Origin: Trypanosoma brucei
Lineage: Eukaryota
Direction of reading: 5' to 3'
Assembly: GCA_000002445.1 (NCBI GenBank)
Contig: CM000208.1
Coordinates: 3,200,001 to 3,264,000, forward strand
Length of the DNA stretch: 64,000 bases
This document shows, one piece after another, positions 49,495-63,939 of this stretch. Below the pieces are notes generated by a model. It worked only from the letters and a program-made list of their open reading frames with translations, was not told the DNA's origin and searched no databases. Numbering within the stretch: the first letter of the stretch is position 1; every line of letters starts with the position of its first letter. The position numbers and the translations under genes are program-made.

Positions 49495-52326
49495 TCAGCA
49501 GCCTGTGATCCCTCTCAGCGCATGTAGGGCAGAGACAACACGGTGTGTTGGAGGGAGAATGTCAACCAGAGCCCAGGCAGCACGCGCCCACTCACCCTGC
49601 TTTTCTGTATTGTTGATGTGAAGATAGAAGACGGAATTGTTCCACGCCTCGACCGTAAAATATTCCAAAAGGAGTAGGGCGAAAGCGGAGGAGTTATTGG
49701 CGGTTACGCCCCTTTCCCCAACCGCACCGTAGCGCCCAAGAAAGGTGCCGACGGTAATACCCATCACGGGAAGAGAAAGGAAACTCATGAGGTGCTGCAC
49801 TACGCACATTTGCTCTTTTCTGTCGGATCCCAAAGTGAAGGCTTTGTACAGGCAAGAGAGGTTCTTTGTAAGGGTTTCAGCAACCGCTTCCTCTTCACCT
49901 GCCCGAACCTCAGTGGAAGCCGCAACTCTTTCCATTAAGTCGAGCGAGGCTTTCGCAAACAGCCCCATGGCGAATTCTCGTAAATAGGAACATTCTGTTG
50001 TGACACGGGATGCCTCGAACGTGGCGGCCTCTGCCAGCGCCTCGTAAACATTATACGGCACAGGGATAGTGGAAAGCTCCCTCACTATCTCATCCATTTC
50101 CTGCGGTGTTTCGATCGATGGGCCACGCAAATGCCACTCAGACTTACTCAGCAAAAATGTCACACGACATTCCGCGGTATAAGTTGTTGAGATAAGATCC
50201 CTACACGCGTTAAGGTGTTTCTCAAGATCCGCCAAGTCAATCAGTGGATTACCTGTTGAAAACAACCGAAACTCGTCCTCCAACATGCACAAGATGGCAG
50301 CCAACAACGGTGACTGTGTGCCCGCTTCCCTAGGCGACGGATCTTGCTCTGCAATGCAAGCGGCTGCTCGAAATAAGGCAATACTTGTGGCGCTAGCTTC
50401 GAGTGTGAACTCTGAACCTAGTAAAAGGAAAGCTTGCGTCCACCACATTACTTCGTCATGTGTTAGTTTCAGCGTGGCAGAGCCCTCCGAGAGAATGTTT
50501 TGAATCCGCTGCGTGAGTTTGTACAAGTCGTCATCAGAGTGCGCGCAACTTCTATTGATAGCCGTGGTGACATACACCCGTAGAACCTCAAGTTCTGTCC
50601 TGACATCTGCGAAGGGTACTGGCGAGAGGAGAGCTTGCAAGGCGGCCAACGAGGCAACGTTGAGGCAGTTCCGCTTTAGGCAGCAGTTGATAGCAGTGCA
50701 CAAGGCTGGGATTACCAACTCCGAGGGTTCACATGCCACCAGTTGGTGTATTTCCTCTTTCATGCATGTCTCGCTTCCTTCCATCACAAATATTTTGAAT
50801 AACAACGCGTGGGCGAAGACACAACGTGGTTTTCGCTCTGTGTACCTAAGCAGAATGTCCTTTGGTTTTGCCAGCATGTTCACTTGCTGTCCTTGCTCCA
50901 CAGACTCCACATATTTTGTGCATAGGTGAAGCTGCAGAGCATTGATCTCAGAGTCGCTTGCACAATCTGCAAGGCGGATCGCTGCCTCAAGACTTTCCAC
51001 TGCCTCTCCGTGGCTAAATTCTGCGTTGTCGCTAAGTTCCCAGAGCCATTTAAAGCAATAGCGTCGATATTTCGGATCCTCGAAGTCCAAACACTCATTT
51101 CGCATTATTTGCAGGGCGGAACGACAAGACTCGGTATCTTTACTGTGAAGGAGGAGCTGAACAAGTCGAAACGTGACACCCTCGGCAGCCGAAGTGCCCT
51201 TGGTCCTGTTCTGTAGTAACTGCATGCTTTCGACTGAACCGCTTTCCATTGTTGTGAACAGCTTCTGAAAGTCAAAACAGACAGCCACCGCGTCATCGAC
51301 GGTGACGTCGAGTCTCTGGACATATTCGCGGAGTTGAACAGACGCCTCCTTTTCCATACCTGCTGCTGCGGTAGCTTTTAGACGCAATAAAGCGGATGTA
51401 TTGGATTGCAGTGCGGAGTCTGCCTCCACCGCCCAACGAACCGCTTCTGACGCGTTCCCTTCCCGGAGCCACGATAACGCCATCTGCTCTAGCGTTGCCC
51501 CACGAAGCATTGGCAGGCGGCAGGGTGCGTCACTTCCTCCATTCTCTTTGAGGTAATTTTGAACGTTAATCGAAGACATAAGCATGTCGCGTATGAAACA
51601 CTCATTTGGAGGCTCCACCTCAGCACTGCCTACCGTGAAAACGAAGTGGAAGAATGTCTCGAGCAAAGTGCGGTGAAGCGTGTTGTCTCGCAACAGCATT
51701 TGCGCAAGCCTTTCACATGACTGTGACGACTCAAACAGGTGCCCGAGGTTCCACATCACCTCCATCTTTGTGTATTCAAATTCCCAACTCAAATTACGGT
51801 GTTTGAGGTGTGGCAACCGTTGTACTACTCCGGGTGGTATGTGGGGAACGATGGTTTCAACAGCGGCAAGAAGTGCCTTAGAACCCTCTGGCATATGATT
51901 CAGAGAGAGGTCACGCGACGTCTTCAGACACATTAGTATGCATTGCTCTGCTTCCCTTGGATGGTGAGTAAAGTAACTGTGTCGAACACTCTCCTCCGAG
52001 TACACAAAATTACCAAGAAGGAACGACCTAGTCGCAAACTCACGCAACGCTACCTTCAGTCTTCGCTCATGCTCTCTACTGTGGTCCGTGCACCGCATTG
52101 TGACGTTCCAACATGCGCTTCCGAGAAGTCGCAGTTCTTCCAGCACCTTCACTGGGAGCGGAGAATCACTGCTTTGATTTGCGGCTGCCCCCTCAACCGC
52201 ACTTGTGGCGATTTTAATATCTGATAGCATATCCTCACAATTGGCGAGGTCCTCACCTTTCCCATGGGTGGTGAATCGATGAAGCACACCATCGAGTTTG
52301 GAGCACAACTGCTTTGTGTCTATCAT
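49495..52326 (-). CDS. Hypothetical protein (943 aa, largely alpha-helical)
   Basis: 3-kb ORF. The 5' 84 codons of the track ORF (TTG start at 52578) translate a G-run and a polypyrimidine tract (FFPPPL...LLFLFLGCYTYCVFLLLL) and are probably 5' flank. The first plausible ATG is at 52326 (MIDTKQLCSKLDG). Confidence 0.65.
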   Translation of the reverse strand: MIDTKQLCSKLDGVLHRFTTHGKGEDLANCEDMLSDIKIATSAVEGAAANQSSDSPLPVKVLEELRLLGSACWNVTMRCTDHSREHERRLKVALREFATRSFLLGNFVYSEESVRHSYFTHHPREAEQCILMCLKTSRDLSLNHMPEGSKALLAAVETIVPHIPPGVVQRLPHLKHRNLSWEFEYTKMEVMWNLGHLFESSQSCERLAQMLLRDNTLHRTLLETFFHFVFTVGSAEVEPPNECFIRDMLMSSINVQNYLKENGGSDAPCRLPMLRGATLEQMALSWLREGNASEAVRWAVEADSALQSNTSALLRLKATAAAGMEKEASVQLREYVQRLDVTVDDAVAVCFDFQKLFTTMESGSVESMQLLQNRTKGTSAAEGVTFRLVQLLLHSKDTESCRSALQIMRNECLDFEDPKYRRYCFKWLWELSDNAEFSHGEAVESLEAAIRLADCASDSEINALQLHLCTKYVESVEQGQQVNMLAKPKDILLRYTERKPRCVFAHALLFKIFVMEGSETCMKEEIHQLVACEPSELVIPALCTAINCCLKRNCLNVASLAALQALLSPVPFADVRTELEVLRVYVTTAINRSCAHSDDDLYKLTQRIQNILSEGSATLKLTHDEVMWWTQAFLLLGSEFTLEASATSIALFRAAACIAEQDPSPREAGTQSPLLAAILCMLEDEFRLFSTGNPLIDLADLEKHLNACRDLISTTYTAECRVTFLLSKSEWHLRGPSIETPQEMDEIVRELSTIPVPYNVYEALAEAATFEASRVTTECSYLREFAMGLFAKASLDLMERVAASTEVRAGEEEAVAETLTKNLSCLYKAFTLGSDRKEQMCVVQHLMSFLSLPVMGITVGTFLGRYGAVGERGVTANNSSAFALLLLEYFTVEAWNNSVFYLHINNTEKQGEWARAAWALVDILPPTHRVVSALHALRGITGC

Positions 52327-52390
52327 CTGCGCAACACGAAATGTGCTTCTCCCGCACCTTCCCTTTTTGAGGTGCAAAGTGTCCCGACAC

Positions 52391-52460
52391 GATAATAATA
52401 ACAAAAAAACACAGTACGTATAGCAACCAAGGAAGAGAAAAAGAAGAGGAAGAACAAATG
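52391..52460 (-). promoter_or_regulatory. Polypyrimidine tract / probable trans-splicing acceptor region upstream of the 943-aa gene
   Basis: The plus strand is purine-rich here (gataataataacaaaaaaacacagtacgtatagcaaccaaggaagagaaaaagaagaggaagaacaaatg), so the transcribed strand is a long pyrimidine tract. AG dinucleotides follow before the ATG at 52326. This is the kinetoplastid trans-splicing/polyadenylation signal, inferred from established knowledge. Confidence 0.5.
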
Positions 52461-52544
52461 TATCTCCATCTTTGCACCTCACAATGTTGGGATGAACCAC
52501 CGAATTAAATAGTGCATATAACAAAAAACACCGAGACAAGAACA

Positions 52545-52556
52545 TGAGGGGGGGGG
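52545..52556. repeat. G12 homopolymer (poly-C on the transcribed strand) upstream of the 943-aa gene
   Basis: Direct reading: catgagggggggggggaaaaac. The track translates it as FFPPPL at the extended 5' end of that ORF. Confidence 0.8.
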
Positions 52557-52749
52557 GGAAAAACAGCCGAGCGCACAAACGACCACGCCACTGCCACCTC
52601 TATGGAGCAGTTGTTCACACGGTCGCATTCCGAACGCATATGTAAGTAATTCACTGCATTCATCTGAATATAAGAGGGATGGGTAATGTCGTCGATAAGG
52701 TTTGTTCACGTTGAAGAATGTCTTCATCTTACATTTCGATTATTTGATA

Positions 52750-53226
52750 CTACAATGTCTTCTGAGCGGCGATCGCCTCTTTTGCAGCTGCCAGTTCTTC
52801 TTCAGCTAACAGTTCGTTCTCTCGCTCCCTAACCATCTGCAAAACTTGTTTTGACACGCGGTGTTCACGTACCTTGCGCTCAAGGACGGGAGTTGTCGGT
52901 CCCACCGTGTAGGCGTGATAGACAAAGGACAACCATATGTTACCGAACATCACAGCAGAGAAGAAAACCATTGTCATGACGAATGTCTTCCACAACTGCA
53001 GTTGGGTCTTCCGCCAGATCCATCGTACGCGGTTTGTACGAAAGGGTTTCGTCAGACGGCCAATTTTGTTCATCACCAACATACGAAAGAACATGGAGCG
53101 CCGGGCAAGTGTGTCCTTAACTGGTCCAGTGCCAGGTCCCCACATTCCAGGCTGGTCGGTGTACTTCGATGGTGTAGGGGCGAGATGCCCACGATTCATG
53201 GCGCGCCGCTGGCACCGACTAAACAT
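52750..53226 (-). CDS. Hypothetical small membrane protein (158 aa, one TM helix, basic N-terminus, acidic coiled-coil C-terminus)
   Basis: ATG start. There is a single hydrophobic helix, TFVMTMVFFSAVMFGNIWLSFVYHAY. The ORF has its own upstream polypyrimidine flank and lies on the cluster strand. Confidence 0.45.
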   Translation of the reverse strand: MFSRCQRRAMNRGHLAPTPSKYTDQPGMWGPGTGPVKDTLARRSMFFRMLVMNKIGRLTKPFRTNRVRWIWRKTQLQLWKTFVMTMVFFSAVMFGNIWLSFVYHAYTVGPTTPVLERKVREHRVSKQVLQMVRERENELLAEEELAAAKEAIAAQKTL

Positions 53227-61351: not shown

Positions 61352-61592
61352 CACTGCTAGTTTTTCCTACTCAAGCAAACAACAATAGCGAAAAAATACT
61401 GAAAAAAAAATATATACATATATATGGCTGTGTATTGTTAGAACAGCGTTGATTAAGCTAACTTCAGTAACGGGAGGAGAACGATCACCTTGAAGGCATT
61501 GTAGTCCACATCCCTACTCCCACGTATGTGAAATTCAATAAACACACATATATACACGTGTATGTCCGTACGTGGATGAAGGATGCATATGC

Positions 61593-61621
61593 GTGTGTGT
61601 GTGTGTGTAGGGGGGGGGGGG
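61593..61621. repeat. (GT)8 followed by G12 (poly-C on the transcribed strand), about 250 nt upstream of the glucosidase II ATG
   Basis: Direct reading: gcgtgtgtgtgtgtgtgtagggggggggggggaactt. Confidence 0.85.
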
Positions 61622-61796
61622 AACTTACGGCTAATTGATGCTGGTAATGGTGTGATTCCTTCTGCATCTGCGCCTCGCGCATCTACTGTATCCGCAATCC
61701 ACACAAATAGAGGTACGTACACAAAAATATTTTGGCTCGACCATCTGTGGGGTAAGTGCCGCCGATGTGTGAAAAAGGGAGATGCACGAAGATGTG

Positions 61797-63167
61797 TTAA
61801 CCATCCTCGTGACCCAGCACTTCCCGGCTCACCGTCGCTCCGTCAACGTACCTAAGCCCACAATTTATCGCAAAAAGCACATCTCTACGCCCCTGACACC
61901 CCATATCCCTGTGCTCTTCATCCGGATTTACCGTCAACCCTACGAGCAGGGAGTCCCTCTCCGCCCGCATTCCACCATTGAGTTGTGTAACGAAGAACTC
62001 CCACAAGCCGGAATGAGGGAGTACAAAGGGAATGGCGTCTCGTCTGCGCGATCCGCTGATGTTGGACACTGCAGAGATTACCACCGTCACGTCCGCCGTG
62101 AAGTGCTGCCTACATAATTCGGCGATAGGTATTAACTTCGTGTGAAGCGCGTAGTGGTTCCCATGGTGGAGAGCAGGGTAGTGGTCGAGTAGCACGATCC
62201 GATATCCCCTTTCCGACAGAGCACGCGCGACTTCAGGCAATTTTTCATCAACCAATGACCACAACGGTCCTTCATTGTGCGCACCGGGCTTTGCAGGTTC
62301 ACGCTTCAGCAACACATTGTCGATGATAAAAACAGCAATAAGACGCTCGGAATCTGTATGAGTGGACGTGCTAGGGCCCTCTCCCTCGCCACCGCGGCGG
62401 AACACACGATAAATCACTCGCTCATCTGGTACGTTCCAGATGCAACCCAGCACATTAAGTGATGTCATTCGTTTGTTTTGCGTAACAAAGTGGAGCGGTG
62501 GGGCATTACACACCTGAATTAAATTGTCTAACGTTTCCCTGATAATGACACCCTCACGTGGTGTACTCTTACCGCCTCTCAGTGTCACCAACGCCTCCTG
62601 CAGGAACCCATCAAATGCAGCATCACTCCTCGCACGTTTATTCACCTGCCCTGCGGACGTATCCGTGCTCGCTGGTGCCGTCGGAACACTACCAACAGTC
62701 AACCCCGAATCCGACAATGCTTGCTTCTTCGCTACTTTAGGCTGCGGTTCAGCGTCAGAAAGGCAAGACCCCTCGGCCAACGCTTGTGCGGGTGTAACTG
62801 AACGGTGCATGACCGTTAACCCTGATGGGATACGCTTGCTTGCCATTGCTTTGGAAGCCCGAGCAAAAATAGTGCAGTCTGTCGGAATGGCAGAGAGTGG
62901 AAATGCAAAGTTCCTCTCGTCAGCAAACAGCACAGGCACCAGCGCGAGGATCTCGCTCCTGCGGGTGGTTAATTTTCCAGTTTTGTGGTTCAGGAGCACG
63001 GCAGCTGTACTTGGTGAGAGTACAACTGGGGTATCGTCCTTTGCGCGAGCCGGGCGCAGCAACTGCAACGGAAGCCATACGTCCGTGACATTCACCCTTT
63101 TCGCGGCACAGAATCGCCCTAATGTTTCACCTTGCTCGCTTGGCAGCAACTGAAAGGTTTCGGCCAT
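61797..63167 (-). CDS. Hypothetical protein with a PNKP-like HAD phosphatase-fold region in which the DxDxT catalytic motif is degenerate
   Basis: The track ORF (to 63377) has a 5' 70 codons that translate a pyrimidine tract. The first plausible ATG is at 63167 (MAETFQLLP). The segment AVFIIDNVLLKR...LWSLVDEKLPEVARALSERGYRIVLLDHY...LPHSGLWEFF is collinear with PNKP 3'-phosphatase blocks ([51 protein letters not shown]). The nucleophile and second Asp positions are substituted. There is no P-loop kinase domain. Confidence 0.5.
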   Translation of the reverse strand: MAETFQLLPSEQGETLGRFCAAKRVNVTDVWLPLQLLRPARAKDDTPVVLSPSTAAVLLNHKTGKLTTRRSEILALVPVLFADERNFAFPLSAIPTDCTIFARASKAMASKRIPSGLTVMHRSVTPAQALAEGSCLSDAEPQPKVAKKQALSDSGLTVGSVPTAPASTDTSAGQVNKRARSDAAFDGFLQEALVTLRGGKSTPREGVIIRETLDNLIQVCNAPPLHFVTQNKRMTSLNVLGCIWNVPDERVIYRVFRRGGEGEGPSTSTHTDSERLIAVFIIDNVLLKREPAKPGAHNEGPLWSLVDEKLPEVARALSERGYRIVLLDHYPALHHGNHYALHTKLIPIAELCRQHFTADVTVVISAVSNISGSRRRDAIPFVLPHSGLWEFFVTQLNGGMRAERDSLLVGLTVNPDEEHRDMGCQGRRDVLFAINCGLRYVDGATVSREVLGHEDG

Positions 63168-63179
63168 CCATTCAGCCCT

Positions 63180-63340
63180 TCGGGGCGTTGTAGAATTGAA
63201 AAGACAGAACCATTGCCAGTCACCACGAGAAACAAGGAAGCGGGAGAGGAGAGCAACTAAGGAGAAATCAGGACAACGTAACAACAAAGAACAAATCTCG
63301 TCAGAAGTAACAGCGATAAGAGTGGGAGAAGCGAAATCAT
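63180..63340 (-). promoter_or_regulatory. Polypyrimidine-rich flank / probable trans-splice acceptor region upstream of the PNKP-like gene
   Basis: The plus strand is strongly purine-rich (gaaaagacagaaccattgccagtcaccacgagaaacaaggaagcgggagaggagagcaactaaggagaaatcaggacaacgtaacaacaaagaacaaatctcgtcagaagtaacagcgataagagtgggagaagcgaaatcattgagg). The ORF track translates this as an N-terminal extension. Confidence 0.45.
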
Positions 63341-63555
63341 TGAGGTATCCACGTGACGGGAAAGTGAGTCTTAACATAGCTCTCTCTCACGCACACTCCC
63401 CTGGCAGTTACCGGCGAAGCGCGTAACAGGCCCACGAACATATTCCACCTCGAGTGTCTTTCTCTTGGATAAGAACGCTACGAATAATTCGGTATCGCGA
63501 TCACTACCCTTAACGGACGAGAGTCGGGGAGGGATACCGGGGGAGCACGGTTCCG

Positions 63556-63939
63556 TTATTGATCTCGCTTTTCCCATGCTTCCACAAAGATATTGTAGTC
63601 AAGGAAGCCGTCACTAACAAAGTCCAACACGTCTTCGGAGATTTCCTCTTTGCGCGACTCCAGTATGCGAACAGCATTCTCCATCGATCCGATGCTCTGA
63701 CAGTTTTTCAGCACATGTTCATCTAAATCTGCATCAACGCGTTTGAGTAACTCCCTATGAATTTTATGTCGCTCGTGCTCATCAGAGACGGAGAAAAAGG
63801 GCGGTAACTTCGCCAACATGGCGTCCTGGTCCAGATTTACCATAAAATCCTCTATGGCACCCACCAGCTGATCAAATTGGGCATCTTCGGCGCTTCCGCA
63901 GTCGCCATATACAACGAACTCACCTTCCTCACTATCCAT
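63556..63939 (-). CDS. ARL2-binding protein (BART) domain protein, 127 aa
   Basis: ATG start. SAEDAQFDQLVGAIEDFMV and DFVSDGFLDYNIFVEAW match the ARL2BP/BART pattern (DAEFD.VVG.LEDI.M ... FTDFLAFKEMFLDY). Confidence 0.6.
   Translation of the reverse strand: MDSEEGEFVVYGDCGSAEDAQFDQLVGAIEDFMVNLDQDAMLAKLPPFFSVSDEHERHKIHRELLKRVDADLDEHVLKNCQSIGSMENAVRILESRKEEISEDVLDFVSDGFLDYNIFVEAWEKRDQ

Follow-up and report, generated by a model that had tools for sequence, protein, structure and literature searches.

Tb927.10.13640 of Trypanosoma brucei, a Probable Pseudo-phosphatase with a PNKP-Type Domain

The Locus and the Gene Model

The DNA under study is a window of 64,000 nucleotides from Trypanosoma brucei (assembly GCA_000002445.1, contig CM000208.1, positions 3,200,001 to 3,264,000 of the forward strand), and all coordinates given here are those of the window. 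On its minus strand lies the gene Tb927.10.13640, which very probably encodes a pseudo-phosphatase related to the 3'-phosphatase domain of polynucleotide kinase 3'-phosphatase (PNKP). An earlier note, made from the letters of the window, had proposed such a protein at this position.

The gene was identified through its neighborhood. The two downstream genes encode the GH31 glucosidase II alpha and an NDUFA9-like protein of T. brucei chromosome 10, with the published identifiers Tb927.10.13630 (glu2) and Tb927.10.13620 (NDUFA9). The gene table in the supplement of PMC13056571 lists Tb927.10.13640 as "hypothetical protein, conserved", Tb927.10.13650 as ARL2BP, and Tb927.10.13660 as a DUF21/CNNM protein.

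Two models of the gene are found in public records. The mechanical open reading frame (ORF) of the minus strand covers 61797..63377 and encodes 526 amino acids; this form is used in the TREU927 record XP_827848.1 and in UniProt Q388N4. The shorter form of 456 amino acids starts at the second Met (M71), and its translation is 100% identical to RHW69240.1 of T. b. equiperdum and to the 456-amino-acid model of T. b. gambiense. All orthologs start at the equivalent of M71 and none carries the 70-codon extension. The two ATGs are separated by 210 nucleotides, a long tract rich in pyrimidines in which AG dinucleotides occur shortly before the ATG at 63167. Because the orthologs start at M71 and the extension resembles a trans-splice acceptor region, 61797-63167 is the better gene model, and the TREU927 model appears from these sequence features to be over-extended by 70 codons. 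The reading frame on which the earlier note was based is thus real, being identical to the public 456-amino-acid model and in agreement with the ortholog starts. The features of the gene and its protein are collected in table 1.

Table 1. Features of Tb927.10.13640 in the window. Residue numbers are those of the 456-amino-acid protein; pLDDT, predicted local distance difference test.
Feature	Coordinates	Strand	Basis or remark
Coding sequence of Tb927.10.13640, 456 amino acids plus stop codon	61797..63167	(-)	Translation equals RHW69240.1; orthologs share the start Met; identifier from neighbors and PMC13056571 table
In-frame extension of 70 codons in the 526-amino-acid TREU927 model	63168..63377	(-)	Probably 5' untranslated region with polypyrimidine/AG trans-splice region, non-coding
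PNKP-type 3'-phosphatase (HAD, PNK3P) homology domain, residues 221-451	61815..62507	(-)	Includes N-terminal β-hairpin with W244
Degenerate motif I, IAVFIIDNVLL	62307..62339	(-)	I281 for the Asp nucleophile, D283 is the +2 Asp and is kept, V285 for Thr; HMMER, hhalign, census
Family hallmark RIVLLDHYPALHHG in place of motif II (VIFTNQxGIxxG)	62160..62201	(-)	D328 at the Thr position; H329, H334, H335 conserved
Degenerate motif III, PFVLPHSGLWEFF	61992..62030	(-)	L383 for the catalytic Lys of RKP; alignments and census
Degenerate motif IV, SLLVGLTVN	61926..61952	(-)	L411 for the Asp of GDAAGR; alignments and census
N-terminal α/β domain, residues 1-135, family-specific	62763..63167	(-)	Weak LysM-like βααβ substructure
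Disordered, poorly conserved linker, residues 136-170	62658..62762	(-)	pLDDT < 50 for residues 141-170; low identity
Two long helices, residues 171-218, between linker and HAD-like domain	62514..62657	(-)	DSSP on the AlphaFold2 model

Homology to the PNKP Phosphatase Domain

Three kinds of comparison, by profile, by profile against profile and by fold, demonstrate that the C-terminal ~230 residues descend from a capless class III HAD domain of the PNKP 3'-phosphatase type, of which the fold and the core-packing residues are kept. The sole Pfam match of the T. brucei protein is to PF08645 (PNK3P), with residues 277-441 aligned to positions 2-155 of the 161 of the profile (E 4e-4, more exactly 3.8e-4) and a score of 20.6 bits, just below the gathering threshold of 22 bits. 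The same profile is matched by 7/8 close orthologs (best E 5.9e-10) and by 20/34 wider family members (best E 5.5e-16), counted at E <= 0.01-0.1, and several orthologs carry a precomputed PF08645 assignment. The NCBIfam search gave no match.

When the single T. brucei sequence was compared with the sequences of the PDB only noise was obtained, and the family profile was required to recover PNKP. With the ortholog profile, HMMER found mouse PNKP chains only; the chains aligned were 1yj5 (wild type), 3u7g (D170A), and 3zvn (D170N). A 34-sequence family alignment compared by hhalign with four authentic PNKP-type phosphatases (from a choanoflagellate, a green alga, and two metagenomic sequences) gave a probability of 99.5% and an E value of 3.3e-22 over 165 columns.

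For the AlphaFold2 model, which was computed from the family alignment, the mean pLDDT is 85 with both folded domains confident, and the Rossmannoid capless HAD core of the model superposes on the phosphatase domain of PNKP. In the Foldseek search of this model against the PDB, the top eight hits are mouse PNKP (E 5e-8), followed by HisB-N, GmhB, and T4 PNK. The capless HAD phosphatases of the HisB-N/GmhB type (2fpr, 2gmw, and 2o2x) are bacterial small-molecule enzymes with intact motifs and are less similar than PNKP. Mouse PNKP was ranked first by all three kinds of search, in support of the PNKP-type HAD fold claimed in the earlier note, which had itself suggested profile and Foldseek comparisons with PNKP and other HAD folds.

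Loss of the Catalytic Residues

The alignment with PNKP allowed each catalytic position to be followed. The pairing of motif I, FDLDGTLI, with FIIDNVLL was reproduced exactly by HMMER against the mouse PNKP chains and by hhalign, as was that of a 25-letter helix of PNKP with WSLVDEKLPEVARALSERGYRIVLL by both programs; these are two of the three blocks of the earlier note. The third was misplaced, because LPHSGLWEFF, considered there as the C-terminal block, actually aligns with the motif III segment (RK)PVSGMWDHL of PNKP, and it is FAINCGLRYVD which pairs with the C-terminal FALNVGLPF of PNKP in both HMMER and hhalign.

In detail, and with PNKP numbers taken from the mouse protein, the nucleophile D170 corresponds to I281, the +2 Asp (D172) to the retained D283, and T174 to V285. 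The Thr of motif II is replaced by D328, the Lys of motif III by L383, and the Asp of GDAAGR in motif IV by L411, and the Asp of D-x-x-F-A-x-N is found as D429. Relative to mammalian PNKP (3'-phosphatase/5'-kinase; PF08645), the protein has lost the nucleophile and the catalytic residue of each of motifs II, III, and IV. The earlier note was correct for the nucleophile of DxDxT but not for the general acid, which is kept as D283; similarly, the loss of the GDxxGR Asp stands, but the substituting residue in T. brucei is Leu and not S/N.

A census of these positions was made on 56 family sequences, of which 53-55 cover a given position. The nucleophile position is occupied mostly by Phe (30), then by Met (6), Ala (6), Pro (4), Ile (3), and others, with Asp in 0/53, so that an intact DxDxT is retained in none of these orthologs and relatives, and the refuting condition which the earlier note had set for itself does not apply. 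The +2 position equivalent to D283 is acidic in 44/53. At the Thr position of motif II, D/E is found in 43 sequences and A/G in 12, and Ser or Thr in none. Lys is present at the motif III position in 0/55 and Asp at the motif IV position in 1/55, a fragment. The Asp of D-x-x-F-A is kept in Trypanosoma, with His in most other members.

An active HAD phosphatase could be postulated if the register were shifted by two residues and D283 acted as the nucleophile (AVFII-D-NVLL), since the five hydrophobic residues which precede D283 superficially resemble the hhhhD pattern. This is highly improbable. HMMER and hhalign both place D283 at the +2 position, and so do deep environmental relatives which read FAIDGTLF ... 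FASYPSLHH ... MP ... VGN, that is, DxDGTL minus the first Asp only; because of the FAIDGTLF of these relatives the register is considered secure. A shifted register would put Val at +2, and the Lys of motif III and the Asp of motif IV would be missing either way. D283 as nucleophile was consequently rejected by alignments, deep relatives, and census alike.

Given that four catalytic residues (the Asp nucleophile, the Thr of motif II, the Lys of motif III, and the Mg-binding Asp of motif IV) have been substituted in practically all members, established HAD chemistry would make an aspartyl-phosphate mechanism impossible. Four of the four catalytic-motif tests failed, which strongly supports the view of the earlier note that this is a catalytically dead protein with a phosphatase fold. 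As judged from the aligned sequences, the loss is ancient and fixed in the family, because the residues are absent from nearly the whole census. The annotation "polynucleotide kinase 3'-phosphatase", used in one automatic annotation (T. melophagium), should not apply, because all four motif tests fail and both accessory domains of the bifunctional PNKP are missing.

In the stand-alone PNK3P phosphatases, such as yeast Tpp1 and the phosphatase domain of plant ZDP, which are active DNA 3'-phosphatases, DxDxT, the Lys, and GDxxGR are intact. Like the T. brucei protein they have a phosphatase domain of the PNKP type and no kinase domain, but its family has not kept these motifs.

Distribution of the Family and Constraint

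Word-indexed homolog searches gave only 8-16 close relatives, even with the 34-sequence profile. An exhaustive profile search over 1.84 billion representative proteins retrieved only 37 at E <= 1e-3, and revealed a deep family and a graded series towards real PNKPs. The 56 sequences of the census are the proteins of this exhaustive search together with Leishmaniinae orthologs. Named taxa include Trypanosoma (T. vivax, T. congolense, T. cruzi, T. grayi, and others), Leishmania, Porcisia, Leptomonas, Novymonas, Angomonas, and Bodo saltans. Across Trypanosoma, the identity is 51-57% in both folded domains and 5-24% in the linker, and because of this difference both folded domains are considered, on sequence grounds, to remain under constraint. 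W244, located in the N-terminal hairpin of the phosphatase-like domain, is kept by every family member covering that position.

One of the deep relatives (P0034) is encoded on an 8.1-kb environmental contig (L001) in the order CNNM, small ORF, pseudo-PNK3P, which matches the order of Tb927.10.13660, 13650, and 13640. The small ORF has no detectable similarity to the T. brucei ARL2BP, so that only the CNNM gene and the order of the genes speak for synteny. The arrangement argues for orthology of P0034, in what would be a deep kinetoplastid-like lineage.

All seven genes called on L001 are located on one strand with spacers of ~100-240 bp, and the contig probably derives from an unsampled kinetoplastid-like protist. 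The gene next to P0034 (L001:4655-5851, plus strand, also present on L002) has SIR2 and YEATS Pfam matches; in its product a deacylase and an acyl-lysine reader would be joined, an unusual pairing.

The possibility that the reading frame is a chance ORF or a functionless pseudogene is negligible. The sub-threshold Pfam score of the T. brucei protein alone could be taken in its favor, together with an antisense ORF of 209 amino acids at 62524-63153 on the plus strand. However, full-length orthologs with domain-specific conservation are found across Kinetoplastea, AlphaFold2 folds both domains confidently, the transcript was quantified in the RNA-seq tables of the PMC13056571 supplement, and the tagged protein is specifically localized (see below); conservation and expression data already refute this explanation. 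The antisense ORF itself lies wholly within the conserved coding sequence and is most likely a by-product of coding-strand composition.

The Former Active Site and a Conserved Histidine Motif

In the place where PNKP has motif II and the following loop (V-I-F-T-N-Q-x-G-I-x-x-G), the family carries (D/E)-H-Y-P-x-L-H-H-G. No other feature of the family is as strongly conserved as this motif together with W244: H334 is found in 54/55 sequences, L333 in 53/55, P331 in 52/55, H329 in 46/55, and H335 in 45/55. Because the ends of strands 1 and 2 adjoin in the HAD topology, D283, D/E328, and H329 should line the former pocket. Canonical phosphate binding of the "substrate-trap" kind is unlikely on the basis of the residues present, since in most members Phe occupies the nucleophile position, and neither the Thr and Lys that bind phosphate nor the Asp that binds Mg is left. 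The nearly invariant motif beside the retained acidic D283 suggests a pocket that may have been re-purposed as an interaction or ligand site and not one in simple decay. The former active-site region would then serve as a binding surface specific to the family.

A further step would be a neo-functionalized enzyme or sensor, in which D283, D/E328, H329, H334, and H335 form a new metal or ligand centre, so that the domain would either catalyze a reaction by chemistry other than that of HAD enzymes or sense a metal or small molecule. The motif tops the conservation of the domain (H334 almost invariant and position 283 mostly acidic, as given above) and is located where motif II lines the active site of HAD enzymes. 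The proximity of the five residues in three dimensions is predicted from HAD topology, the PNK3P clade has no known precedent, Pfam and NCBIfam detected no other catalytic family in the protein, and such conservation could equally reflect a protein-protein interface. A new metal or ligand centre is therefore regarded as unlikely, and a non-catalytic binding surface remains the preferred reading of the motif.

The Remaining Parts of the Protein

The N-terminal 135 residues form a confident α/β domain in the AlphaFold2 model, and only a weak LysM-like match was obtained for them. By Pfam and structure comparison this domain is not an FHA domain, nor does it correspond to another known repair-interaction module. 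The helices which follow the linker (residues 171-198 and 203-218 by DSSP on the model) are of medium confidence. Just after the linker, at residues 177-180, is placed a basic KRAR cluster with basic equivalents in the orthologs, which could from its composition be a candidate nuclear localization signal.

The absence of a kinase domain, already pointed out in the earlier note, is confirmed. The sequence contains no Walker A motif and stops at residue 456, ~5 residues past the HAD-like domain (451), and the next gene is only 442 nucleotides away. Mammalian PNKP has both FHA and kinase domains; Tb927.10.13640 has neither, but carries the new (D/E)HYPxLHHG motif. In place of the missing FHA and kinase domains it has the conserved N-terminal α/β domain and the disordered basic linker.

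Nuclear Localization and Proposed Function

The source data of the TrypTag atlas assign 48 proteins, Tb927.10.13640 among them, to a class of "Pol II-like" nuclear foci, a pattern that the TrypTag authors tie to the spliced-leader (SL) factories of RNA polymerase II (Pol II). The same class holds XPB (Tb927.3.5100), XPD (Tb927.8.5980), p44 (Tb927.8.6540), TSP1 (Tb927.1.1080), and TFL1 (Tb927.11.1040). With the factors of the SL RNA gene pre-initiation complex (TFIIH/TSP1-2, TFL1/2, and MED-T) the protein has in common the "Pol II-like" class, the restriction to kinetoplastids, and the lack of a recognizable ortholog elsewhere; for comparison, the nine-subunit MED-T complex has been described as being without recognizable homology. 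The difference is that Tb927.10.13640 is not among the checked subunit identifiers of the TFIIH, TFL, and CRK9 complexes.

It is possible, with a probability set a little below even, that the protein belongs to the compartment of Pol II and SL RNA gene transcription, where it would be a structural subunit or an adaptor without catalytic activity. The explanation taken as a whole, namely a kinetoplastid-specific nuclear pseudo-phosphatase with a presumed non-catalytic adaptor role at the sites where Pol II transcribes SL RNA, is given an even chance. Several points weigh against it. The "Pol II-like" pattern, which is the sole experimental datum found, is one class of a high-throughput survey, assigned "based on a qualitative similarity". 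No interaction, chromatin immunoprecipitation, or knock-down data on Tb927.10.13640 were found in the literature searched, the gene is absent from the readable identifier lists of TFIIH, TFIIF-like, and CRK9 complex subunits, and it has no entry in the searchable immunoprecipitation supplements of chromatin factors. To these are added the Pfam score of the single T. brucei protein below threshold and the topology-based placing of D283, D328, H329, H334, and H335 at one site.

Known subunits were also considered as identities of the protein. Published identifiers ruled out the TFIIH subunits (TSP1/TSP2, p62, p34, and TFB5), TFL1/TFL2, and CRK9, CYC12, CRK9AP or a protein co-purifying with them.

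The alternative of a DNA-repair scaffold, as the earlier note had it, deserves separate attention. In this explanation the dead PNKP domain would still bind repair partners or damaged DNA ends carrying a 3'-phosphate, and would bring further factors to strand breaks. The domain clearly descends from the DNA 3'-phosphatase of PNKP, the protein is nuclear according to TrypTag, and TFIIH, a factor of both repair and transcription, is in the same localization class. However, the HAD residues which contact phosphate and Mg are all lost except the +2 Asp, and the nucleophile is mostly replaced by the bulky Phe, which should fill the phosphate pocket; a phospho-substrate binder is consequently left without support. 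The protein has no FHA domain or other known repair-interaction module, no damage-related data were found in the literature searched, and its TrypTag pattern is that of SL transcription factors with no repair annotation, so that in contrast to mammalian PNKP its localization class is not linked to repair. A repair scaffold is thus judged improbable, and the adaptor at the Pol II/SL RNA sites is preferred.

A more far-reaching variant combines two of the above ideas, with the PNKP-derived pocket rebuilt as a His/Asp ligand or metal centre in a so far unrecognized subunit of SL transcription, for example one of the nine MED-T subunits. This variant is doubtful. If it is true, a fold known from a DNA-repair phosphatase would be part of a basal complex of Pol II transcription.

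As a separate observation, several CRK9-co-purified proteins labeled "hypothetical, conserved", namely Tb927.1.4680, Tb927.7.3080, Tb927.4.3150, Tb927.9.13970, Tb927.3.3740, and Tb927.10.11600, belong to the TrypTag classes "Pol II-like" or "One or two points". This overlap of CRK9 co-purifiers with TrypTag nuclear classes hints at a shared nuclear body.

Novelty and Relevance

The Pol II machinery for SL RNA is essential in trypanosomes and consists of very divergent proteins, most of which were found only biochemically. Other pseudo-enzymes with the HAD fold have kept the scaffold after the loss of the Asp nucleophile and use it for binding or scaffolding; they share the concept with Tb927.10.13640 but belong to other HAD clades. 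HAD pseudo-enzymes are thus known as a concept, and what would be new is a PNKP-type pseudo-phosphatase with such architecture, motif, and lineage restriction.

In the literature searched, no pseudo-phosphatase of the PNK3P clade is described, and none in trypanosomatids, which would make this the first pseudo-enzyme of the clade that the searches could find. Tb927.10.13640 is named in no main text within that literature, has no match in the supplements of PMC12975129, PMC8559703, and PMC6597758, and a search for PNKP/PNK3P in trypanosomes and for guessed Leishmania gene identifiers returned nothing relevant. These searches, like the annotation as "hypothetical protein, conserved", agree with the statement of the earlier note that no such protein had been described.

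The combination of PNKP ancestry, dead active site, new His motif, and Pol II-like localization makes the protein a concrete candidate, open to experimental test, for a component that is missing or unassigned in the Pol II/SL RNA compartment. It also provides a functional handle for a gene whose label in all TriTryp genomes is nothing more than "hypothetical protein, conserved". Interest would increase if the protein proved to belong to the SL RNA transcription machinery as a subunit or to carry a new His/Asp centre; if it is an ordinary structural paralog with a minor role, the value would lie mainly in a better annotation.

Neighboring Sequences in the Window

The upstream neighbor Tb927.10.13650 (63556-63939, minus strand, 127 amino acids) is an ARL2-binding protein in the table of PMC13056571. 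It gave no significant Pfam match, the best being a spurious L1R_F9L hit (E 0.044).

The intergenic region between Tb927.10.13640 and glucosidase II (61453-61722) is low in GC (0.43). Both mechanical ORFs across it translate to repetitive low-complexity peptides (for example PPPPTHTHTRI on the minus strand and VCVCVGGGG on the plus strand), consistent with simple sequence of an untranslated or intergenic region.

In the same polycistron, two further minus-strand ORFs, of 1027 amino acids (49495-52578) and 158 amino acids (52750-53226), have no Pfam match at E <= 1e-3.

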